From a virus (Duplodnaviria; Heunggongvirae; Uroviricota; Caudoviricetes): a DNA stretch of 64,000 nucleotides. Shown here one piece after another: positions 1,986 through 48,213 of the stretch (its first letter is position 1; the number at the start of each line of letters is the position of its first letter). The notes below the pieces were generated by a model. That model ran no database searches. It had not been told where the DNA came from and saw nothing but the letters and a program-made list of their open reading frames with translations. A program made the position numbers and the translations under genes. The stretch lies in IMG/VR virus record IMGVR_UViG_651053023_000001, positions 1 through 64,000 of that record, one strand, 5' to 3'.

Positions 1986-2044
1986 TGAGCCGCGGTTTTT
2001 GTCAACTACGAAGACGAGCCATTACTTAACTCCTTGACATCATT

Positions 2045-2068
2045 GGCGGCCGAAAGGCCGCCTTTTTT
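2045..2068 (+). terminator. rho-independent terminator (GGCGGCCGAAAGGCCGCC + T6)
   Basis: Perfect GC-rich hairpin followed by TTTTTT, immediately 3' of the ant-like copy A stop on the other strand. Confidence 0.6.
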
Positions 2069-2070
2069 AA

Positions 2071-3183
2071 TCATTCAGCCGCCACCGGTTTTAACAAGCC
2101 AGCATCGAGCAGTTTACGCGTCAACCACTGCTGGCCTTTACCCGTTAATTGAGGCGTCAGCCGTATCTGATAGCCATCTTCATCATCCAGCACCACTTCT
2201 TTCACTGTGAAATATCCGGCGTTTATGTACTGCTGAAACGGTACATTTTTACGTCCGCCGGACGCAATCAGGATGCCGTTCTCCCGTAACCAGGCAAACA
2301 GCGCATTTTGCTTAAGTCCAACAACCTTTGCAAAATTCCCAATCAGGATCCCCTTAGCCACTGATACCCGGTCGGCAAAATCGACCTTAGGGGCTGCGGC
2401 CACCAGCTGCTGATTTAGCTGGTGGGCTTTCTGTTCCAGAAGTTGCTTTTGTTCAGCCAGCTCGGCAGCCAGGCGCAGAGCTTCGGGAAGCGTCTGAGGG
2501 ATTGCGACCGGTTGCTGTTCTTTTTGCCGGAAGTAGCTGTCTTCCAGTTTTTCAAAGAATGCCCATGCCTGATCGGTTTCGATCATTTTAGCGTGGCGGG
2601 CTGCGCCGCGTTCCGTCCAGAGAGTGAGGTTTCTGGCGTTCTTACCAACAGAGTTACTAAAAGTAACTCTGTTCTTAAATTCTCTTAATTTTGAACCAGT
2701 TAAAAGAAAGTAGTGTTTACCTTCTTCAAAGCGATCGGAGTTGCAAGACAAATTTTTACGAATATTGCCTTCATCGGTTCCGTACCCCTTAGCAAGAGTT
2801 TCGGTTGTTACGACACGTACTCCCTGCCATTCCAGAACGGGAATTTCATCCGGCTGATTTTGAACAACCACCAGCTCCGATTCCTGAACTGAAGGTGCAT
2901 GAATTTTTTCTGATTTAACGTTAGTTGCTTTCATTCTGTGTGCCTCCTTGCGTGCTTCGGCTGCGACGGTTGCGTAATTCAGATGACCCTGTTCGAGCAG
3001 GTATTCGCGGATATCAGACAACAGGATACGGTGAACCGCGTGTTTGTCCTTTCTCCGGTAAAGTTGTTTGGTGATCATGAAGTAGTTGGCAATAACGCCT
3101 GGTATATCCCTGGTGCTGATACAGGCAGTGTGCTGTTCAATTGCCTCGATCATCTCTTCACGGGTGACTAATGACGTTCTCAT
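2071..3183 (-). CDS. antirepressor-like protein, copy A (ORF6N/Bro-N-like N-terminal region plus KilA-C/ANT C-terminal domain)
   Basis: 370 aa; C-terminal ~150 aa (PQTLPEALRLAAELAEQK...KVDFADRVSVA...GKGQQWLTRKLLDAG) shared with the canonical Ant (47170..48213) and with KilA; preceded by an icd-like ORF overlapping by ATGA. Confidence 0.8.
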   Translation of the reverse strand: MRTSLVTREEMIEAIEQHTACISTRDIPGVIANYFMITKQLYRRKDKHAVHRILLSDIREYLLEQGHLNYATVAAEARKEAHRMKATNVKSEKIHAPSVQESELVVVQNQPDEIPVLEWQGVRVVTTETLAKGYGTDEGNIRKNLSCNSDRFEEGKHYFLLTGSKLREFKNRVTFSNSVGKNARNLTLWTERGAARHAKMIETDQAWAFFEKLEDSYFRQKEQQPVAIPQTLPEALRLAAELAEQKQLLEQKAHQLNQQLVAAAPKVDFADRVSVAKGILIGNFAKVVGLKQNALFAWLRENGILIASGGRKNVPFQQYINAGYFTVKEVVLDDEDGYQIRLTPQLTGKGQQWLTRKLLDAGLLKPVAAE

Positions 3184-3401
3184 AGCCCCTCCTGAGCAGA
3201 AGCGTTAACAGGGAGGCACCAGTAACTGAGAGAATTGCGCAAATCGGTAGAAAAGCGGGCAGAGAAAATACAGGGAGCATCCGGAAGCTGAGAACGTGCC
3301 TCATCTTCTGTTGGTGCGATAACGAAGTGATAGTGACGTTTCTGGCAGGAGTAAAAGCGCCAGATAAATTCAGGGCGTGCGCAAGGATTGGCATTAACCA
3401 T
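3180..3401 (-). CDS. Icd-like small protein, copy A
   Basis: 73-aa ORF MVNANPCARPEFIWRFYSC... overlapping the ant start; same arrangement as icd-ant in the canonical immI copy. Confidence 0.7.
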   Translation of the reverse strand: MVNANPCARPEFIWRFYSCQKRHYHFVIAPTEDEARSQLPDAPCIFSARFSTDLRNSLSYWCLPVNASAQEGL

Positions 3402-3444
3402 AGTTACGGCCTCATGTACAGGTTTAACAACCTGCTACCCGCTG

Positions 3445-3525
3445 CTAAACGGGTGGCAGGACGTGACGGGGTTAGCAGACTGGCGTACATGAAACCAGCA
3501 GGCCGAAGCCTCCCCATCACGCCCC
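3445..3525 (-). ncRNA. c4-like antisense RNA, copy A (approximate bounds)
   Basis: Conserved leader block upstream of icd carrying a 6-nt element (ATGTAC in RNA sense) complementary to GTACAT overlapping the icd ribosome-binding site and to a second GTACAT further upstream. Confidence 0.4.
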
Positions 3526-3702
3526 ACCATAATTCGGGCGTAACGCGGTTTTACGGACATAAAAATACCGCAATATCGGAAATCTGCGGTTGTCCGCATG
3601 TACATTCAGGCTGCTAAACCCGGTCGCAGAATTTGCTACGACGTAGGAACTATAAGCCTGAACAACAGGAAGATCAATAGTCTGGCGTCCAATAGTAGTT
3701 TA

Positions 3703-3735
3703 TTTGCTCTAATAAATCAAATTTATTAGAGCAAT
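3703..3735. promoter_or_regulatory. overlapping head-to-head pair of C1 operator sites
   Basis: TTTGCTCTAATAAATCA on top strand and ATTGCTCTAATAAATTT on bottom strand, forming a palindrome. Confidence 0.65.
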
Positions 3736-3994
3736 AACAATCTAGTTGAATGTTTCCTCTCTGAGGTTGCAATGTGCACACTTAGTGCCTTATTTGTATG
3801 CACTAATAAATATATTATTTTTAACAATAAATAATTGACAACTGACAAGTGACTTCAGTCAGAATCATCACACGCCCGGTACGGATGGATCCCTTTTCAA
3901 ATATTCCATGGACGGCACAGTCTGAGTACCGGGCGCTACCTTAAGTTGTATTGCTAAGCCGCCGCTGGTGGCTTTTCTTTTTTGTAGGGGCGCT

Positions 3995-4636
3995 ATGGAT
4001 AAGAAAATATGCGTTGTTTCGATGAGCGTCGGCAAACCGGCGTCAATGACTGCTGCATGGATCAACAACGAGCTGATAATGGCTGAGCGGACCAGCTACC
4101 CTGAACGCCGCCGCGATATGGAACTCCAGCTGCTGCGCGAATTGCGAGAAAAAGAGGAAAAGGGTTTTATCGTGCTGGTGGAAGAGGAAAACAGCTTTAT
4201 TACTGGTCGAGTTGGCCAGCGTGTAAGGTTGCGCGATCCCTTCATGAACGGCAGGCCGGTACTAATTGAGGCCATGCAGATTTATAAGGAGCTGGAACGC
4301 CAGAAAGCAATCAAGTTACCGCGCAAGGAATCCGGCAAATACATCCTCCACCAAAGCATCTTCGATTCCGAACACGACAAAAAAGGCGATGAATTTTTCA
4401 ACATCAACTGGAGCGAAATAACGACAGAGCATGTTCTGACGTTACTATGTTGCTTTGCGACGGAATACAACAACGTTGCCAGCGCAGACTACATCAGGGC
4501 AATGGCTGGAGAAGTTGAGGCACGCCAGGAACCATCGTTACTAAGCCCTCTGATTAACATAATTCGCGGCACACAGAGACTTGCGGAAAAAAGCGTTCCA
4601 CACGGAATCTTAACTGGGAAGGGAAACTATTTTTAA
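3995..4636 (+). CDS. hypothetical protein (core of the inverted-repeat structure)
   Basis: ORF from ATG at 3995 (track ORF starts 3968) with AGGGG 5 nt upstream; no family recognised by eye. Confidence 0.5.
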   Translation: MDKKICVVSMSVGKPASMTAAWINNELIMAERTSYPERRRDMELQLLRELREKEEKGFIVLVEEENSFITGRVGQRVRLRDPFMNGRPVLIEAMQIYKELERQKAIKLPRKESGKYILHQSIFDSEHDKKGDEFFNINWSEITTEHVLTLLCCFATEYNNVASADYIRAMAGEVEARQEPSLLSPLINIIRGTQRLAEKSVPHGILTGKGNYF

Positions 4637-4669
4637 CATCCCCAAATCCTTTTGGGGAACAACTCATTC

Positions 4670-4987
4670 TTACAATAGCTGCCCCATACATTGTCTCCAG
4701 GCACTCCCCTCATTACCGTTATCAAGAAACGTAGAGGTTGCATAAGGAATGCCTCTGATTTGTGTTGATGTGAATGGACCATCAGACGTCGAAGTTGTGC
4801 GCAGTTTTGATGTAAACTCGTAATTTCCACTGATGCCTTTCTCTGCCAGAGCTTTTGATTTTGTGATAACTAAATCTGCACATTTCTCTGCGGCTACATA
4901 TTGCGGGTCTTTTTCAGCTTTTCCGGCACATGCAGTTATCGTTAAAACGATAGCTGCGGCTAACAAATTACCTAGTTTCATCTGCAT
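4670..4987 (-). CDS. small lipoprotein (signal peptide with lipobox LTITAC)
   Basis: 105 aa; N-terminal MQMKLGNLLAAAIVLTITAC is a typical lipoprotein signal peptide with cysteine; two further Cys in the mature part. Confidence 0.55.
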   Translation of the reverse strand: MQMKLGNLLAAAIVLTITACAGKAEKDPQYVAAEKCADLVITKSKALAEKGISGNYEFTSKLRTTSTSDGPFTSTQIRGIPYATSTFLDNGNEGSAWRQCMGQLL

Positions 4988-5086
4988 ACCTTATTAAGTG
5001 CATTAAAAACAGTAGGTTGCCAAGGTTTTAAACAAATTTCAATTCTCCATGACGCTCAACATGAGCAAAAATAACACACAACCCTC

Positions 5087-5120
5087 ATTGCTCTAATAAA
5101 TTTGATTTATTAGAGCAAAT
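5087..5120. promoter_or_regulatory. overlapping head-to-head pair of C1 operator sites
   Basis: ATTGCTCTAATAAATTT (perfect consensus) at 5087..5103 and its partner ATTTGCTCTAATAAATC on the bottom strand at 5104..5120. Confidence 0.65.
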
Positions 5121-5294
5121 ATCCTACCATTGCGCATAGCCCTATTGATCTCCTTACCGTTCAGGCTTATATTCATGCCGTCGTAGCAAATTCTGCGACC
5201 GGGTTTAGCAGCCTGAATACTTACGCGGACAACCGCAGATATCCGATATTGCGGTATTTTCATGTCCGTATAACCACGTTACGCCCGAATTATG

Positions 5295-5375
5295 GTGGGG
5301 CGTGATGGGGAGGCTTCGGCCTGCTGGTTTCGTAAGTGCCAGTCTGCTAACCCCGTCACGTCCTGCCACCTGTTT
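5295..5375 (+). ncRNA. c4-like antisense RNA, copy B (approximate bounds)
   Basis: Same conserved block as copy A but the 6-nt element is GTAAGT, complementary to ACTTAC at the icd ribosome-binding site (5404..5410) and at 5219..5225. Confidence 0.4.
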
Positions 5376-5420
5376 AGCAGCGGGTCGCAGGTTGTTTTAT
5401 CAACTTACGAGGCCGTAACT

Positions 5421-5642
5421 ATGGTTAATGCCAATCCTTGCGCACGCCCTGAATTTATCTGGCGCTTTTACTCCTGCCAAAAACGTCACTATCACTTCGT
5501 TATTGCACCAACAGAAGATGAGGCCCGCTCTCAGCTTCCTGACGCCCCATGTATTTTCTCTGCCCGCTTTTCTACCGATTCGCGCAATTCTCTCAGTTAC
5601 TGGTGCCTCCCTGTTAACGCTTCTGCTCAGGAGGGGCTATGA
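5421..5642 (+). CDS. Icd-like small protein, copy B
   Basis: 73 aa from ATG 5421 (track ORF 5292..5642 carries an unsupported N-terminal extension); one residue differs from copy A; overlaps the ant start. Confidence 0.7.
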   Translation: MVNANPCARPEFIWRFYSCQKRHYHFVIAPTEDEARSQLPDAPCIFSARFSTDSRNSLSYWCLPVNASAQEGL

Positions 5643-6757
5643 GAACGTCATTAGTCACCCGTGAAGAGATGATCGAGGCAATTGAACAGCACACTGCCTG
5701 TATCAGCACCAGGGATATACCAGGCGTTATTGCCAACTACTTCATGATCACCAAACAACTTTACCGGAGAAAGGACAAACACGCGGTTCACCGTATCCTG
5801 TTGTCTGATATCCGCGAATACCTGCTCGAACAGGGTCATCTGAATTACGCAACCGTCGCAGCCGAAGCACGCAAGGAGGCACACAGAATGAAAGCAACTA
5901 ACGTTAAATCAGAAAAAATTCATGCACCTTCAGTTCAGGAATCGGAGCTGGTGGTTGTTCAAAATCAGCCGGATGAAATTCCCGTTCTGGAATGGCAGGG
6001 AGTGCGTGTAGTGACAACCGAGACTCTTGCTAGAGGGTATGGGACAGAAACAATCCGTATTCGCCAAAATCATCATGAGAACAAAGTACGCTTTGTTGAA
6101 GGGAAGCACTTTTTCAAAGTTGAAGGAGAATCATTGCGCGAGTTGAAGCACAGAGTAGCTTTAAACTACTCTGTAAAAATTGCTCGCAATGTTCGCTCAC
6201 TCACCCTCTGGACAGAACGCGGCGCAGCCCGCCACGCTAAAATGCTCGAAACCGATCAGGCATGGGCATTCTTTGAAAAACTGGAAGACAGCTACTTCCG
6301 GCAAAAAGAACAGCAACCGGTTGCAATCCCCCAGACGCTTCCAGAAGCTCTGCGCCTGGCTGCCGAACTGGCTGAACAAAAGCAGCTTCTGGAACAGAAA
6401 GCCCACCAGCTAAATCAGCAGCTGGTGGCCGCCTCTCCTAAAGTCGATTTTGCCGACCGGGTATCAGTAGCTAAAGGGATCCTGATTGGGAATTTTGCAA
6501 AGGTTGTTGGTCTTAAGCAAAACGCGCTGTTTGCCTGGTTACGGGAGAACGGCATCCTGATAGCGTCCGGTGGACGTAAAAATGTGCCGTTCCAGCAGTA
6601 CATCAATGCGGGATATTTCACGGTGAAAGAAGTGGTGCTGGATGATGAAGATGGCTACCAGATACGGTTGACGCCTCAATTAACGGGTAAAGGCCAGCAG
6701 TGGTTGACGCGTAAACTGCTCGATGCTGGCTTGTTAAAACCGGTGGCGGCTGAATAA
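5639..6757 (+). CDS. antirepressor-like protein, copy B
   Basis: 372 aa; identical to copy A over the first ~131 aa and the C-terminal ANT/KilA-C domain, with a divergent patch between. Confidence 0.8.
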   Translation: MRTSLVTREEMIEAIEQHTACISTRDIPGVIANYFMITKQLYRRKDKHAVHRILLSDIREYLLEQGHLNYATVAAEARKEAHRMKATNVKSEKIHAPSVQESELVVVQNQPDEIPVLEWQGVRVVTTETLARGYGTETIRIRQNHHENKVRFVEGKHFFKVEGESLRELKHRVALNYSVKIARNVRSLTLWTERGAARHAKMLETDQAWAFFEKLEDSYFRQKEQQPVAIPQTLPEALRLAAELAEQKQLLEQKAHQLNQQLVAASPKVDFADRVSVAKGILIGNFAKVVGLKQNALFAWLRENGILIASGGRKNVPFQQYINAGYFTVKEVVLDDEDGYQIRLTPQLTGKGQQWLTRKLLDAGLLKPVAAE

Positions 6758-6764
6758 TGGAAGA

Positions 6765-6790
6765 ATGCCCGGTTGATGCCGGGCATGATT
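6765..6790 (+). terminator. hairpin (ATGCCCGG-ttgat-GCCGGGCAT) after ant copy B; weak terminator
   Basis: Perfect 8-bp stem but poor U-tract. Confidence 0.35.
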
Positions 6791-6904
6791 AAATGTCTCT
6801 TCAGCACATTACCGAAGTTCAATCTTCAACCAAGAAGTGGACTCGCATACGATTATCGCAATAAAATACTTGAAGTTTTATAAACTGTGAGTATCATTAC
6901 CCAT

Positions 6905-7360
6905 ATGAAAACATCCTATTTAACTATATTGGCTTTCCATATTCGCGATTTTCGCGAGAAGCATGGTGTTACTCAATCAGACATTGCATCTGGCCTTGGG
7001 ATAACAAGTGCCGGCTGGGGAAAAATTGAAAATGGTAAGTCCTCTCTCTCTGTAGAGAATATGATGAAATTCTGTAAAATCATTAATATTGATGCAACCA
7101 TACTTCTTGATATTTCCACAAAATCGGCAAAAAACTTAATCAAATGTGGATGGAGTGTATCTTATTCTCCTGTTGAGGATGATAATTTAATAGACGGAAA
7201 AAATATATTTGCTAAAACACATGGAATGAATAACGTTATGAGGAAATTTATAGACGGGAAACTTGGAAGTGTTTTAGACAAAGAATTTGATGATATTATT
7301 ATGAAATATGCAACATTTTATATGGTTGTAGCTAAAAATCTAAGAGATGACTTGATTTAA
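6905..7360 (+). CDS. XRE-family helix-turn-helix protein with C-terminal domain of unknown function
   Basis: HTH signature GVTQSDIASGLGITSAGWGKIENGKSSLSVENMMKF; AT-rich codon usage; start taken at ATG 6905 (track ORF begins at GTG 6887). Confidence 0.6.
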   Translation: MKTSYLTILAFHIRDFREKHGVTQSDIASGLGITSAGWGKIENGKSSLSVENMMKFCKIINIDATILLDISTKSAKNLIKCGWSVSYSPVEDDNLIDGKNIFAKTHGMNNVMRKFIDGKLGSVLDKEFDDIIMKYATFYMVVAKNLRDDLI

Positions 7361-7375
7361 AAATGGAGTGTACAT

Positions 7376-8128
7376 ATGGCATACAGAAAAGACAGCGATC
7401 TTGAATTCCTAGCTAAATGTAGCGACCGTGATCTTGATGATTTAGTTAACCTATTGATTTATGATAACGATGGCAAAAAAAGATGGACTGAAGAGTTATC
7501 TAACAATCGACAATATAAGGAATTTGCACCAAGACATAGCGTATATTGGAGAGAAATTGCTGCTGAAATTCAATGTTATGGTGGAAATACCATAGCAACT
7601 CTCTTGCGTGGTGGTAAAGGGGTCTGCTACAGAGAAATTCTCATTGATGTATGCAATAAGCTAAAGGTTAATTTCAATGCCAAGAGCCGAATAGAGGTTA
7701 TTGAACAAAATCTTCTATTAAAAATTCTCAGCGACTCTCTAGATAACATGTCATCCGAAGATATAAAAGTTTTTGCCATGGAACTTGGATTGGATGAAGT
7801 TACAAGATTTACTCCTGAGGCAGTTCTATCTGCCTTCCAATATATTTTCAGGGCCGGCGGTTTCAGATCTTATCAGGTAACTCTTAAATTTGCGAATCTT
7901 TTACTAAAAATTTTAATTGGACGCGGTTTAACACTCGCAGGTAATCAAATACTCGTAAAAGCATTATCTATTTTAACAGGCCCAATTGGTTGGGCTATAA
8001 CAGCCGCATGGACCATTGTAGATGTGGGAGGAACTGCTTATCGAGTAACAATTCCTGCTGTTATTCAAGTTGCTGTACTAAGGGCGAAAGTCAATAATAA
8101 TATTAAAGACAGCGATATTACCTTGTGA
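7376..8128 (+). CDS. hypothetical 250-aa protein with C-terminal hydrophobic segment; candidate effector of a two-gene accessory cassette
   Basis: ATG with GGAG 7 nt upstream, 15 bp after the HTH gene; hydrophobic stretch LTGPIGWAITAAWTIVDVGG near the C-terminus; AT-rich. Confidence 0.65.
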   Translation: MAYRKDSDLEFLAKCSDRDLDDLVNLLIYDNDGKKRWTEELSNNRQYKEFAPRHSVYWREIAAEIQCYGGNTIATLLRGGKGVCYREILIDVCNKLKVNFNAKSRIEVIEQNLLLKILSDSLDNMSSEDIKVFAMELGLDEVTRFTPEAVLSAFQYIFRAGGFRSYQVTLKFANLLLKILIGRGLTLAGNQILVKALSILTGPIGWAITAAWTIVDVGGTAYRVTIPAVIQVAVLRAKVNNNIKDSDITL

Positions 8129-8149
8129 TATTATAACTCCATCCATCAA

Positions 8150-8180
8150 GGAAGAGGTGCTAATCCTCTTCCTGTAATTC
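8150..8180. terminator. bidirectional terminator hairpin (GGAAGAGG-tgctaat-CCTCTTCC) between convergent genes
   Basis: Perfect 8-bp stem between the + strand cassette and the - strand lxc-like gene. Confidence 0.5.
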
Positions 8181-8203
8181 TATGATTCCTAAATGTTAAT
8201 GAG

Positions 8204-8452
8204 TCAATCAGCATTCAGAAGCAATGCGTTATCTATGATGATCTGCTCCCATTCTTCGAATGCCCGGTCGCGGACGCCCTGGGGAACGCTGTTAGTTTTG
8301 AAATCGACGACCGTACGCCATTTTCCGTCCGGACGGTACATGCGCAGAGCTTTACTTCCCCCTTCCCTGCGCACCTCAACGTTATGCTTGTCAGCAAACT
8401 CTTGTAATGCTCGTAGCGTCCCATGCTTTACTGTGTAGTATCGCTTTTTCAA
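8204..8452 (-). CDS. lxc: Lxc/Bof-like C1 co-repressor modulator (by size and synteny)
   Basis: 82-aa ORF at the end of the darB-ulx transcription unit; size and position match P1 lxc as I recall it. Confidence 0.5.
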   Translation of the reverse strand: MKKRYYTVKHGTLRALQEFADKHNVEVRREGGSKALRMYRPDGKWRTVVDFKTNSVPQGVRDRAFEEWEQIIIDNALLLNAD

Positions 8453-8889
8453 GTTTTCTCTCCAGCCTGTGCCAAGGCTTCAACTTCCAAATCGTAAGAC
8501 TCAAACTCATAGTCCTGGTCGTCAACCTCTTCAGGCACTGGCAGTAAATGCCAGGCTGAGTATATCTGACCATTATCAAAACGCTCCTGGCTGTAGAGCG
8601 TCGCAGCTATGAGCGTCAGCGCCGGGCGGTCATAACGGTAAATTTTGCGAACGTCACGGTCAACGAGACGACCGAAATTACCATAACCGCGCTCCAGTAA
8701 TAATTTTTTAATTTCCGGCCAGTATGGACCATAGCTGCGGTACAGGCGGGGATTTTTCAGTAATCGCCCGCGTAGCCCTGACAGGAAGAAATCAACGTAT
8801 TCGTCTTCTGTCTTTCCTAACAACGCCGTACGCAGTACCGCCTCAAGATATGTTTTATTCGGTTTTATTGTATCAGATAGTGTGGCCAT
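8449..8889 (-). CDS. ulx: Ulx-like protein (upstream of lxc)
   Basis: 146-aa ORF between darB and lxc, overlapping lxc start by 4 nt. Confidence 0.5.
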   Translation of the reverse strand: MATLSDTIKPNKTYLEAVLRTALLGKTEDEYVDFFLSGLRGRLLKNPRLYRSYGPYWPEIKKLLLERGYGNFGRLVDRDVRKIYRYDRPALTLIAATLYSQERFDNGQIYSAWHLLPVPEEVDDQDYEFESYDLEVEALAQAGEKT

Positions 8890-8922
8890 ATTATGCGACG
8901 CCCGGCGAACCGGGCGCTCCTG

Positions 8923-11900
8923 TTATGCGTATTGTTGGATGACGGCCAGAACGTCCGCCACGTTGTGTTTTGTCTCGATAATCCACCAGTTACCCGGGAA
9001 ATCGCTGTTCTTCGCCTTCGCTGGCAGCCAGCGAGCGCCGAATTTCGCCTTGATTGCGTCTTTCGCACGGAAAAGAACGCCTTTCATGCCTGAGGCTTCC
9101 TGAAGCCCAAATACCTCGCCAGCGGCGAATTTTGGTGCGTACATCATCTTCAGGTCGGCGGTGGATACGCGATAATTCAGACCAAGAGACTGAGCTATGC
9201 TGGTGGCATCACCCTGTATTGATGATAACTCTTCTTGTTTCTCGTTTCTGGCGGCAATCTCTTCCTCCGTGATGTTGCCAAGGGCCAGGTTTATCCGATC
9301 AGCGTCGGCCTGTTTCTCTTCATCGGTGCGCCCGGCAAGAACCGTGTTAATTCTCTGCAATATCTCCACATGATTCTTGCGCATGCTGAGCAATTCCGGC
9401 GTAACCTCGTTAAGATCCACCAGCCCAAGGATGGCAAGGTCGGAAAACATTGATACCAGGTTGTAGGTCATGCGATAGCTGAGTTGACCATAGGCTGATG
9501 GCAACTTCACCGCATCCATTTGATAGGCATCCATAAATTTAGAGCCGTCGTTTACGACATCCGCTATTGCAGGTGTGATTTTCCCTGTGGTGGCGGCCTC
9601 CCTGATTGCTGTTACCCACGATTGAGTCAGCGCGGCGACTGCATGATTCAGATTGGCTTCCCGTTCTGCTGCGATGCGCGCGCTTGCTGCGTCCATTGCC
9701 TGCTTGATCTCGGCTTTATTGCTGTAAATGCCAATGGTGCCAAACTGTGCTGTGGTGATCTCATAATCTGACGCCCGGAACTCATGGGTACCGAAAATAG
9801 CATTGGTGACCTCAAGTTCAGAGTCCCCGTTACGAGTAGCCCCCTGGCTTGTTTTCTCCGGCATTTTGGCGATCGAATCCGCTATTTTCTCCTGAAGTGC
9901 TTCAGGGGATAGCGTATCTCCGTATGACGCGATTACATCGCCATAATTGGAGCCAAACAGTTCAGTCAGGAATACTTCTGCCAAACGGACCTGGCGGTTA
10001 TTCCCTTCCGACATCATACCAAGCACCCATTTTGCAATTGACGACTTCAGCGCGCCGTCACGGCGATCCGGGTAAACCGCATGCTTCAGTGGGTCCGTAT
10101 AGGTACCAACAAAATCAATGCTATAGCCTGACTCTGTAGTCTGAACGCCGTATGAGTCAGTGATTTTGATCATGCCGCGCTGCTGGAAACGGTAGAAATC
10201 GTCACAGGAAATGATGTCGTTAATCCCGGCGATGGAGACGCCACCACTGATTTTCTGCATAACAGCATCTTCATCGGGAGTTACATCCACCTGTTTATCC
10301 AGCGTCTTCACATCCCAGTTACCCGATTTGGTGCCTTTGAAGGTAAAGATGATCTCCACGTCTGCGCGCTGGCTGTCGAAGTCCAGCGACTTAATGCGAA
10401 CGATATCACCGGCACAATCGTAGTATTGGCCTACACGCCATGAGCGATCGCCGATAACAAGGAACTCATTCGCATGGTTAACCATGTCAGGATCAATATC
10501 CAGAATGCCTTTATTTATTGCATCCTCCACCAGCGGGCGCAGGCGTTTGATATCCGTCGCGGCCTTCTGAGTACGGTTCAATAATTTCTCATAGCGTGAG
10601 ATGGCCTGAGAGATATTAGCCTTGCGCTGAATGGCGCTTTTCAACGACGCGCGATACTGTGCTAACAACATACGGTCTGTGTGATGGACACTCCCCCAGC
10701 GGGCCTTCCAGTCTGCGTTATCCGCTGCCTTGGCCATTGCCGCCTGTTTGAATTTAGCTACCTCGGCGGTGGTCTTTTCAAGTTCCGCTTTGCTTCGCTC
10801 TAATTCAGCGGTAAGTACCTCCACATCCTCGCCAGCTGCGTGCTGCGCCTTGATGTAGTTCTGAAGGTCGATAGTAGCCTGTTCTTTCTGGCGAGCGCGT
10901 TTCGCAGCTTTCGCCTTATCCATTTGAACCTGCATCATTGCCAGACGTTCGCCGTCATCCTTCGCGGTATACATCTGCATTTCGATCATGTCATTGGCGT
11001 CGGCGTTCTCCATTTCTGACTTATCTGAACGGAGGATATCGGAGATCCAGCCTGCTTTACGCTTCAGCGTCTTCAGTCGGTATTCATCGAAAGACCCCTT
11101 GCCGCAGTAGTAGTGAACGCGAACGCTTGCACGGTTGGAGCCAACTCGTGCACCGCGACCGTTACGTTGTGCGATACTGGCTGGTGTCCACGGCAACGTC
11201 AGGTGGTGGATATCCGTCGTTCCTCGATGCAGGTTGATACCCACCTCTGCCTTTTTGTTGCAGATGATGATCGGAGTCCGGCCCTCCTGGAAGTCGGCTG
11301 CAATCTTTTCCAGACCGCCCAACGACATTTCATTTTGCTGCGCGATATAGGCGTCATACAGAGCCATTTGCTCGTTGTATTTCGCTATCTGTGCATCTGT
11401 TGGTTCATCCGGTAGCTCTTTCGGCGGTTTAACCGCTTTCAGTTTCTTACCGGTTTTACCTGCCTCGGCAACCGTCTGAGCATTCAGGATCCCCACCTTT
11501 GAAGGTTCAAGGTTTAGAGCATTGCAGATAATGCGCTTGAGCTTCTGGTGCTGCGTTTTTTCATCGGTGAAGATGATTTGCTTACCTTCCGGGAAAAACT
11601 CCTTCAGCGTGGCGATCAGCTTCGCGTATTTGGGCGTAACGGGGTGAGTTACGGTCTGTTCGTCAATGCCAAACCTGGCCAGTCGCTTATTCACTTCCTG
11701 CTCGAACGCTTCCGGAACCTGCAACTGAATAAACTCGCCCTTATCTATCAGGGAGTATTGCGATTGCTGCGTGATTGAATCATCACTGTCGTCGTATTCG
11801 CTGGTGGCTTGTTTAGGCAAACTGTCCGCCAGCTGCTGCACCGCATCGGCGTACTCCGGCAGGAAACGATAGGTGATCCGGCGATAGTACAGGTCCATGT

Positions 11901-46637: not shown

Positions 46638-46824
46638 GTATTTTTAAGTCGCGAATGCTATCTTTTCGCATCATATTGACCTTTTAATCGTTCAGGCTTA
46701 TAGTTTCGCCGTCGTAGCAAATTCTGCGACCGGGTTTAGCAGCCTGAATGATTGTGCGGACAGCCGCAGATATCCGATATTGCGGTATTTTTGTGTCCGT
46801 AAAACCGCGTTACGCCCAAATTAT

Positions 46825-46905
46825 GGTGGGGCGTGATGGGGAGGCTTCGGCCTGCTGGTTTCACAATCGCCAGTCTGCTAACCCCGTCACGTCCTGCCAC
46901 CTGTT
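46825..46905 (+). ncRNA. c4: c4 antisense RNA of the canonical immI region (approximate bounds)
   Basis: Conserved leader block with element ACAATC complementary to GATTGT at the icd ribosome-binding site (46933..46939) and at 46750..46756. Confidence 0.45.
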
Positions 46906-46951: not shown

Positions 46952-47173
46952 ATGGTTAATGCCAATCCTTGCGCACGCCAAGAATTCATCTGGCGTTTCT
47001 ATTCCTGCAAAAAACACCACTATCACTTCGTCATCGCAGCAACAGAAGACGAAGCACGCTCTCAATTGCCTGATGGCCCCTGCATTTTTACTGCCCGTTT
47101 TTCAACTAACTCGCGCAATTCACTTAGTTACTGGAACCTCCCCTTCTCTGCCGACGTTCAGGGGGGTTTATGA
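46952..47173 (+). CDS. icd: Icd (interference with cell division) small protein
   Basis: 73-aa ORF MVNANPCARQEFIWRFYSC... overlapping the ant start, downstream of the c4 leader. Confidence 0.75.
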   Translation: MVNANPCARQEFIWRFYSCKKHHYHFVIAATEDEARSQLPDGPCIFTARFSTNSRNSLSYWNLPFSADVQGGL

Positions 47174-48213
47174 AAAAACCTCTCGTCACCCGTAATGAAA
47201 TAGCCGAAGCGATCGCCCTGCATACAACCTGTATGCCGACACGGGAGATCCCCGGCGCAATTGCCAACTATTTCATGATAACCAGGCGTTTTTATACCCG
47301 AACAGATAAGGCTGTGATCAACAAGCTACTGATAGCCGAGATCAGGGATTATTTGATTGAACAAGGACGTCTACGTTACGCAACAGTGGCAGCAGAAATA
47401 AGAAAGGAGGCACATAGAATGACCGGTAATAATTTGAATGTTGAAAAAACAGCACCTGTTACGTCAGCTACGCCAGCACCAGCCGTGAATATCATCCCCA
47501 ACACCGGAGACACAATCGACAGCCAAACATTGTTGAAGATGGTCAATGAGGCACGCAAGTTATGTGGAGAACCAGAGGTTAGAAACAATAAATTCATCGA
47601 AAAAATACTCGATGAACTTGAAGGTGAATTTTACACAAAAAGTGCAAAATCCCATGGCACAAGGGCTGGGCGCTCTTTTGAGGTCATCACCATGACCTAC
47701 AAACAAGCCCTGCGAGTTGCCGCGCGCGAGTCAAAAGCGGTCCGCCGTTCGCTGATCGACAAACTGGAAGAATTACAGCAGGCAAACTCCCCTACCCCAT
47801 CGATCCCCCAGACATTACCAGAAGCCCTACGCCTGGCTGCCGAGTTAGCAGAACAGAAAATGCAGTTGGAACAACAGCTGGTGGCCGCAGCCCCTAAAGT
47901 CGATTTTGCCGACCGGGTATCAGTGGCCAATGGAATCCTGATCGGGAACTTTGCAAAGGTCGTTGGACTTAAGCAAAACGCCCTTTTCTCATGGTTGCGC
48001 CAGAATGGCATTCTCATGGCTTTTGGAGCGCGCAAAAACGTACCGCGCCAACAGTACATCAACGCCGGGTATTTCACGGTGAAAGAAGTGGTGCTGGATG
48101 ATGAAAATGGCTACCAGATACGGCTGACGCCCCAATTAACGGGTAAAGGCCAGCAGTGGTTAACTCGCAAGCTACTTGATGCTGGTTTGTTAAAACCAGT
48201 AGCAATAGGTTAA
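47170..48213 (+). CDS. ant: Ant antirepressor (canonical immI copy)
   Basis: 347 aa with KilA-C/ANT C-terminal domain; followed by kilA-repL as in P1. Confidence 0.85.
   Translation: MKKPLVTRNEIAEAIALHTTCMPTREIPGAIANYFMITRRFYTRTDKAVINKLLIAEIRDYLIEQGRLRYATVAAEIRKEAHRMTGNNLNVEKTAPVTSATPAPAVNIIPNTGDTIDSQTLLKMVNEARKLCGEPEVRNNKFIEKILDELEGEFYTKSAKSHGTRAGRSFEVITMTYKQALRVAARESKAVRRSLIDKLEELQQANSPTPSIPQTLPEALRLAAELAEQKMQLEQQLVAAAPKVDFADRVSVANGILIGNFAKVVGLKQNALFSWLRQNGILMAFGARKNVPRQQYINAGYFTVKEVVLDDENGYQIRLTPQLTGKGQQWLTRKLLDAGLLKPVAIG

Follow-up and report, generated by a model that had tools for sequence, protein, structure and literature searches.

Juk immunity and the cassette of pUMNF18_103

Juk ("jumbo phage killer") is an anti-phage defence described by Li et al. 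(bioRxiv 10.1101/2022.09.17.508391; published in Cell 188:2127 (2025)), whose sensor is JukA, formerly called YaaW. Here we compare with it a two-gene cassette found in a 64,000-nucleotide stretch of tailed-phage DNA (IMG/VR record IMGVR_UViG_651053023_000001, positions 1 to 64,000; hereafter the window), in which a gene for an XRE-family helix-turn-helix (HTH) protein is followed by a jukA gene. The mechanistic details of Juk given below are taken from the 2022 preprint of Li et al. and from a 2026 review (PMC13282480).

In uninfected cells JukA is diffuse in the cytoplasm, and upon infection it arrives within minutes at the injection site of PhiKZ-like phages, where, in PA14, it recruits JukB (bioRxiv 10.1101/2022.09.17.508391). 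According to the review, JukA detects early phage proteins on the early-infection vesicle and JukB makes pores there (PMC13282480). In PA14, JukA alone is insufficient and the loss of phage DNA needs JukB, and the response is non-abortive, with infected cells going on dividing, as shown for JukAB only (bioRxiv 10.1101/2022.09.17.508391). Li et al. synthesised 17 jukA operons, one of which, Jo6 (WP_121372120.1, Escherichia, labelled "jukA;HTH-XRE" and marked "Yes"), conferred specific immunity to PhiKZ-like jumbo phages in PAO1. Deletion analysis of Jo6 showed that JukA alone is sufficient, the strain without the XRE gene being viable and fully immune; the XRE gene is dispensable for immunity in the Escherichia and Janthinobacterium operons alike. 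The JukA of Jo6 relocalises to the infection site, and infection is arrested without degradation of phage DNA (all from bioRxiv 10.1101/2022.09.17.508391).

The cassette analysed here occurs at 100% identity and identical coordinates in pUMNF18_103 (NZ_AGTD01000005.1), a 103-kb circular P1-like phage-plasmid of the porcine enterotoxigenic Escherichia coli (ETEC) strain UMNF18, of which the window represents positions 1-64000. It is an AT-rich insert of ~1.42 kb (6786..8203, plus strand) that holds a promoter, the XRE gene, jukA and a terminal hairpin. We conclude that it is probably a member of the XRE-linked branch of Juk defence that lacks JukB and rides as accessory cargo on pUMNF18_103, with a JukA that would be sufficient by itself and an XRE protein that would act as autorepressor.

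The evidence that carries this reading begins with the second gene (7376..8128, plus strand), which encodes a 250-residue protein (WP_000331488.1). The PADLOC JukA profile PDLC04113 matches it over residues 2-242 of 250 (E 3.2e-66; 221 bits), and PDLC04111 does so at E 1.4e-62. Pfam places DUF3944 (PF13099) at residues 3-37 with 51.9 bits (gathering cut-off 24) and the Cbp3-like Ubiq_cyt_C_chap domain (PF03981) at residues 56-227 with 34 bits (gathering cut-off 21.5), and DUF3944 joined to a Cbp3-like body is the signature of the JukA family (Li et al., bioRxiv 10.1101/2022.09.17.508391). Judged by these three family features, all of which are present, the protein is a full-length member of the JukA/YaaW (UPF0174) family, presumably the sensor and, as in the XRE-linked subtype, the sufficient immunity protein. 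The first-pass annotation of this DNA had been unable to assign any motif to it and regarded the module as possibly undescribed; profile searches overturn both points, since the protein belongs to a named family and the relative Jo6 has been published. The family is large and well conserved (1412 homologue clusters at E <=1e-3), and in the PHROGs database the protein falls into phrog_13238, of unknown function. The YaaW of E. coli K-12 belongs to the same superfamily, but the full-length score against its model (NCBIfam PRK10236; 115.9 bits) is far under the equivalog cut-off of 395, which makes the window JukA a mobile paralogue and not an orthologue of chromosomal yaaW.

An AlphaFold2 model of JukA (predicted local distance difference test, pLDDT, 66.9; predicted template modelling score 0.71) is all-helical and confident over the N-terminal two-thirds, and a structure search with it returned no solved structure that resembles it. 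The C-terminal hydrophobic segment that had been noted earlier does exist (~176-235; glycine-rich); its best 19-residue Kyte-Doolittle mean of 1.56, however, misses the usual transmembrane cut-off of 1.6. With JukA also reported to be diffuse in the cytoplasm, we dropped a transmembrane C-terminus as a firm claim.

The closest described relative is Jo6 itself. The printed part of Jo6 comprises 369 nucleotides of its XRE gene, and these are identical (369/369) to a P1-like element, L003, which carries a 151-residue XRE gene and a 250-residue JukA (P0002) between hicB and the ddrB/darA/lydB operon. By this identity, Jo6 is natural DNA of another P1-like phage-plasmid, taken from a different slot. 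The two cassettes share their layout: a 151-residue XRE gene, a short gap, a 250-residue JukA and a homologous promoter block, both being AT-rich cargo of P1-like phage-plasmids. In the window the XRE gene is likewise co-oriented with and directly upstream of jukA, and its product is 71% identical to that of Jo6 (over 123 amino acids), while JukA is 73% identical to P0002. At the DNA level the identity is ~72% over the 369-nucleotide XRE stretch, and the mean column identity is ~79% over the aligned cassette and flanks. The alignment begins ~40 bp ahead of the XRE start and ends at the jukA stop codon, beyond which the terminators are unlike. The cassettes differ in slot (hicB-darA for the Jo6-type element, ant-lxc in the window), in their terminators and in the leader, a 14-nucleotide Shine-Dalgarno leader being present in the Jo6-type allele and missing from the window allele. 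Comparison with PA14 JukAB gives a more distant likeness. The sensor family is shared, with DUF3944, the Cbp3-like domain and a full-length PADLOC match, but PA14 needs JukB and loses phage DNA, whereas XRE-linked JukAs arrest infection without DNA degradation. No JukB was found beside the window jukA, whose sole partner is the XRE-HTH gene, with no PADLOC JukB match and with ant and lxc as flanks (the rest of the plasmid and the chromosome were not scanned).

The XRE partner and its promoter block

The first gene (6905..7360, plus strand; WP_000858461.1; Pfam HTH_3, E 8e-9) encodes the dedicated partner of this JukA clade and its probable autoregulator. It lies 15 nucleotides upstream of jukA, as had been reported, in a gap that holds a GGAG Shine-Dalgarno sequence at 7365-7368; the two plus-strand open reading frames span 6887/6905-7360 and 7376-8128. 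Of the two lengths initially proposed for the product, 151 residues (ATG 6905, also the RefSeq start) is retained and 157 residues (GTG 6887) is dropped, because all 14 XRE homologues, save two with N-terminal extensions, begin with MKTS and the GTG falls inside the conserved promoter block. The two genes are annotated only as "helix-turn-helix transcriptional regulator" and "DUF3944 domain-containing protein".

The AlphaFold2 model of the XRE protein (pLDDT 85.5) consists of an N-terminal HTH_3 domain and a helical C-terminal half of ~75 residues. The HTH domain superposes at 1.2-1.5 Å on the restriction-modification (R-M) controller proteins C.BclI, C.Esp1396I and C.AhdI, and PADLOC reports a Control_protein match (E 6.5e-6); matches over the whole length, to DdrO, Stl and PrgX, are loose (10-15 Å root-mean-square deviation). 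The family is small (16 clusters, Enterobacterales only), and a search of 1.84 billion representative proteins gave no relatives of the C-terminal domain outside the family itself.

In all six contexts examined (the window, L003, Rahnella, Enterobacter, Pectobacterium and Serratia) the XRE gene stands 11-17 nucleotides upstream of a JukA of 250-254 residues. The flanks of these cassettes are unrelated, the Rahnella, Enterobacter, Pectobacterium and Serratia copies residing in chromosomal islands, and the cassettes are AT-rich in every host examined (36-38% G+C against 44-63% in the flanks). The pairing is nevertheless modular, since a 67%-identical JukA of E. coli (L008, SNTO01000085.1) has no XRE gene in the 421 nucleotides upstream. 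This XRE-less JukA adjoins two dynamin-like GTPase genes and an AAA_15 ATPase gene on the opposite strand (L008 2214-6308), a neighbourhood that may represent another JukA-associated, or simply a neighbouring, defence module. In Enterobacter asburiae (L012, CP077411.1, 2716-4049) a divergent pair lies ~1 kb upstream of the cassette and encodes a 250-residue protein without a Pfam hit (minus strand) and a 152-residue HTH protein (plus strand); the sizes agree with those in the cassette, of which this pair may be a second copy, degenerate or very divergent.

The DNA ahead of the six XRE genes contains a single alignable block, AAACTTGCAGTTTyATAAACTgtGAGTATCAT. Across six cassettes and five genera this 32-bp stretch has a mean pairwise identity of 88%, compared with 63% for the XRE coding sequences and 30% further upstream. 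In the window it contains a sigma-70-type promoter (6870..6897, plus strand), with hexamers TTGAAG and TATCAT 16 nucleotides apart and 9 of 12 positions in agreement with the consensus, and two putative operators. The first, O1 (ATACTTGAAGTTT, 6866..6878), overlaps the -35 hexamer; its family consensus, AAACT-TGC-AGTTT, is a perfect 5-3-5 palindrome, and the palindrome is perfect in five of the six cassettes. The second, O2 (AAACTGTGAGTAT, 6882..6894), repeats O1 imperfectly with its centre 16 bp further downstream, where it overlaps the -10 hexamer. Because the palindromes overlap a competent promoter, autorepression is the most likely logic, and this arrangement of sites suggests that the XRE protein most likely represses the XRE-jukA operon. 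The Jo6 construct starts at the XRE ATG (Supplement file 2 of bioRxiv 10.1101/2022.09.17.508391), which would explain why the XRE gene seemed dispensable there, since the promoter/operator block was not part of it.

The window allele departs from its relatives in its leader. Only 7 nucleotides separate the -10 hexamer from ATG 6905, with no Shine-Dalgarno sequence (6892-6907), whereas the remaining five cassettes have 15-21 nucleotides and a G-rich Shine-Dalgarno; compared with the Jo6-type allele, the short leader reflects a 14-nucleotide deletion that removes the Shine-Dalgarno. This spacing, together with the lost ribosome-binding sequence, suggests that the XRE message of the window allele may be leaderless.

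Several of these traits recall the C proteins of type II R-M systems (C.PvuII, C.AhdI, C.Esp1396I), whose HTH fold is shared (1.2-1.5 Å, TM-score ~0.8), whose gene is also first in its operon, and whose two tandem palindromic operators, with the 5' copy nearer the consensus, resemble those of the cassette, one allele of which may be leaderless as well. C-protein operators combine a strong distal and a weaker proximal palindrome, often before leaderless genes, and are also found on mobile elements (PMC2632904). The differences are nonetheless substantial: C proteins have ~80 residues, whereas the XRE protein has 151 and an additional 75-residue C-terminal domain; the C-box has a GTG spacer and extends over 35 bp, whereas the cassette operators are spaced by TAT, CAT or AAT and extend over 29 bp; the cassette operators overlap good -35 and -10 elements, which, unlike the C-protein layout, suggests repression rather than activation; and the gene downstream is jukA, not a restriction endonuclease. 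We therefore rejected an assignment as an R-M C protein on size, extra domain, spacer and downstream gene, although the XRE protein may work like one.

The mat-lxc cargo slot

P1 and P7 carry their type III res/mod genes in the interval between mat and lxc, and comparison of the slots bears out the initial placement of the cassette in the position of these R-M genes. In the window the same interval contains a 103-residue gene (minus strand) and an extra c4-icd-ant module, followed by the cassette. Its left neighbour is the ant gene of the extra module (5639..6757, plus strand), preceded by an Rfam C4 RNA at 5288-5373; its right neighbour, identified by matches to P1 lxc, is lxc (bof; 8204..8452, minus strand), followed by ulx and darB. 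The lxc flank is common to ~700 P1-like plasmid records, of which 7 hold the cassette at >=98.9% identity and 9 have ant joined nearly straight to lxc. The cassette is thus carried by only ~1% of P1-like plasmids; P1 and P7 lack it, and its absence from the empty-slot relatives is clean.

Alignment with the empty-slot plasmid pLH10-b-1-B puts the edges of the insert at ~6786-8203, where it takes the place of ~15 bp that otherwise separate the ant hairpin from the lxc stop codon. Neither target-site duplications nor terminal repeats were found at the insert ends. With a G+C content of 35.3%, against a mean of 48.1% (standard deviation 3.3), the insert is the lowest of 1252 windows of 1417 bp across the 64 kb, and G+C at third codon positions is 0.27 in both cassette genes, against 0.48-0.58 in ant, lxc, ulx and darB. 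These values agree with the compact AT-rich operon of two co-oriented genes described in the first-pass annotation, and its proposal of horizontal acquisition is likewise sustained by the self-contained nature of the cassette and its place in a variable cargo slot. The flanking terminator hairpins held up in part. Both fold, but the left one (6765..6786, plus strand; -18 kcal/mol, z -4.5) is the 3' hairpin of ant, borders the insert on its left from outside the cassette and is also found in an empty-slot plasmid (L002), and neither hairpin was called in a scan for canonical stem-plus-T-run terminators. The one after jukA (8149..8173, plus strand; -14.8 kcal/mol, z -2.8; no T-run) is a possible weak terminator.

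Other P1-like elements fill the same interval differently. In p28Eco12 (L019, 6989-7939) it is occupied by a PIN-domain protein of 316 residues, and in pTB202 (L020, 5189-5938 and 6838-7965) a RelA/SpoT-domain protein of 375 residues lies in the mat-lxc slot and a DUF4145 protein between ref and mat; these PIN-domain, RelA/SpoT-domain and DUF4145 proteins are possible further defence cargo. Because the slot is filled in different elements with type III R-M genes, a PIN-domain protein or a RelA/SpoT-domain protein, it is a genuine variable cargo site with content of the defence type. The second slot, hicB-darA, also gathers mobile and toxin-antitoxin (TA)-type cargo, as seen in L003, where an IS605-family OrfB/TnpB gene and a HicB-like antitoxin gene precede the cassette (3364-5205). 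Among 5426 complete E. coli genomes, the window allele is present in 8 and the Jo6-type allele in 5, every copy on a plasmid of 94-105 kb and none on a chromosome. Searches of the INPHARED phage records gave no DNA match to the cassette, and tblastn returned only proteins of 33-34% identity.

The surroundings of the slot are rearranged in the window. A 1.7-kb inverted repeat, ~93% identical, occupies 2039-3735 and 5087-6789, and each arm is a c4-target/c4/icd/ant module, with icd-ant at 3401-2071 (minus strand) and 5421-6757 (plus strand). The right arm stops at 6789, and the repeat belongs to the duplicated ant module, not to the cassette. Between the arms lie a mat-like gene (3995-4636) and the 103-residue gene (4670-4981, minus strand), and the repeats could allow inversion of the mat segment. 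The P1 ref gene is missing from the window, with the inverted c4-icd-ant copy in its place, and is retained in the relative pSvP1_F. The plasmid has three copies of the C4 antisense RNA, at 5288-5373 (plus), 3534-3449 (minus) and 46819-46904 (plus), and three Ant antirepressor genes, at 5639-6757, 3183-2071 and 47170-48204. Within 3500-9500, an Rfam scan (E <=0.1) detected C4 on the plus strand only, and blastn recognised the copy on the minus strand (93% identity). Between the two extra Ant proteins the identity is 91%, and with the Ant at 47 kb it is 55%; we take the locus of the latter, only from its sequence, as the canonical immI.

A probable mode of action and its alternatives

Transferred to this cassette, the Juk findings give the following picture. 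JukA would be a cytoplasmic, all-helical protein with a DUF3944 N-terminal domain and a Cbp3-like body, whose amount is kept under control. On injection by a nucleus-forming jumbo phage (Chimalliviridae), JukA would move to the injection site or the early-infection vesicle, recruited through recognition of ejected or early phage proteins, and, as expected for the XRE-linked subtype, would stop the infection by itself, with no need for JukB. The XRE protein would be the regulator of the operon and not an effector, binding the two AAACT-N3-AGTTT palindromes over the -35 and -10 hexamers and thereby repressing the single-promoter XRE-jukA transcript. The benefit would be that a P1-like prophage shields its host from virulent jumbo phages. 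The defence module proposed at the outset is thus supported through homology, by a full-length JukA and by the anti-jumbo-phage immunity of an Escherichia XRE-JukA operon whose JukA is 73% identical.

Several observations weigh against this reading. The window allele is 27% diverged from the tested Jo6 allele and its function is read by homology, and the immunity of Jo6 was measured in Pseudomonas against Pseudomonas phages (bioRxiv 10.1101/2022.09.17.508391). Confidence in the JukA model is middling, its C-terminal helices (160-218) having a pLDDT <50 although they are the most conserved part of the family. The operator argument draws on cross-genus conservation of six sequences, with XRE binding predicted, and the O1/O2 pattern is not significantly enriched in the window (4 matches against 2.9 expected). 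Finally, the way in which some JukAs protect alone is unexplained (PMC13282480), and a trans-acting effector is possible.

One alternative is that the system has two components and that JukA recruits the XRE protein as an effector to shut off phage or host transcription. It is favoured by the mention of "transcriptional regulators" among JukA-associated effectors in the 2026 review (PMC13282480), by the strict synteny in 6/6 contexts and by the family-specific C-terminal domain, which could dock on JukA. The dispensability of the gene in the Escherichia and Janthinobacterium operons argues against it, and the conserved operator-like block in the operon's own promoter fits self-regulation. Early in Chimalliviridae infection, moreover, phage genes are transcribed by virion and phage RNA polymerases, for which reason a host-type repressor is an unlikely effector. 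We consider this explanation very improbable.

Very improbable, too, is a type II TA or abortive-infection module in which the XRE protein would be the antitoxin and the 250-residue protein a membrane-active toxin, an option that the first-pass annotation had left standing. An XRE gene upstream of a tightly coupled second gene is a common TA order, addiction modules are common on plasmids, the JukA C-terminus is hydrophobic, glycine-rich and highly conserved, and the XRE protein has weak, sub-threshold NCBIfam matches to the HTH domains of HipB, Y4mF, PezA and HigA. These matches cover the generic HTH only, however, and none reaches the curated cut-off of an antitoxin family (HipB, HigA, PezA, MqsA) (the best, TIGR03070, 33.1 bits against a threshold of 71.65; the others 16-23 against 48-290), and the partner is JukA, no known toxin family, with no segment over the transmembrane threshold and a diffuse distribution in uninfected cells. 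A toxin would also be at odds with the viable and fully immune Jo6 strain that lacks the XRE gene, where JukA was both tolerated and sufficient, and with the 67%-identical JukA that stands without an XRE gene in L008. Abortive infection is further disfavoured by the non-abortive outcome in PA14, which was shown for JukAB and not for the XRE-JukA subtype.

A non-defence role is the least probable of all, be it that of a chaperone of the Cbp3 kind or some accessory or regulatory task for the P1-like element, with the XRE protein in the lysogeny circuitry. In its favour, the Pfam match is to the ubiquinol-cytochrome c chaperone family, chromosomal yaaW of E. coli K-12 has no known role and the cassette adjoins immunity genes (c4-icd-ant and lxc). 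Against it, the rarity of the cassette among P1-like plasmids and its clean absence from P1, P7 and the empty-slot relatives place it outside P1 biology, chromosomal islands of four other genera hold the same cassette, no other P1 promoter in the window repeats the O1/O2 motif, and direct experiments showed anti-phage activity for a 73%-identical homologue.

The preferred reading, an XRE-linked, JukB-less Juk cassette, can be carried further, though only tentatively and at rather long odds. P1-like phage-plasmids might be natural vectors of anti-Chimalliviridae immunity in the Enterobacteriaceae, carrying diverged XRE-JukA alleles in at least two slots, with sensor and effector combined in one self-contained cassette. 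Together with the double operator, the XRE protein might then form a C-protein-like establishment and dosage switch, leaderless in this allele, and the hydrophobic, Gly/Pro-rich C-terminal helices of JukA might be a conditionally exposed membrane-inserting element that disables the early-infection vesicle directly.

The XRE-JukA subtype was already known; the cassette contributes to it a new allele in a new slot, and is not a new kind of system. What our analysis adds is that a P1-like phage-plasmid is the natural carrier of the validated Escherichia operon, that there are two alleles in two slots, and that a conserved promoter/operator block points to autoregulation by the XRE protein. This block, left out of the published constructs, offers a concrete handle on the regulation of JukA-only systems. 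The comparison also gives a name and a likely function to the "DUF3944" and "helix-turn-helix" genes on P1-like plasmids of pathogenic E. coli (porcine ETEC, bovine O111 and human isolates). Since the Escherichia JukA operon validated in Pseudomonas is the cargo of a temperate phage-plasmid, one phage here arms its host against a very different class of phages.

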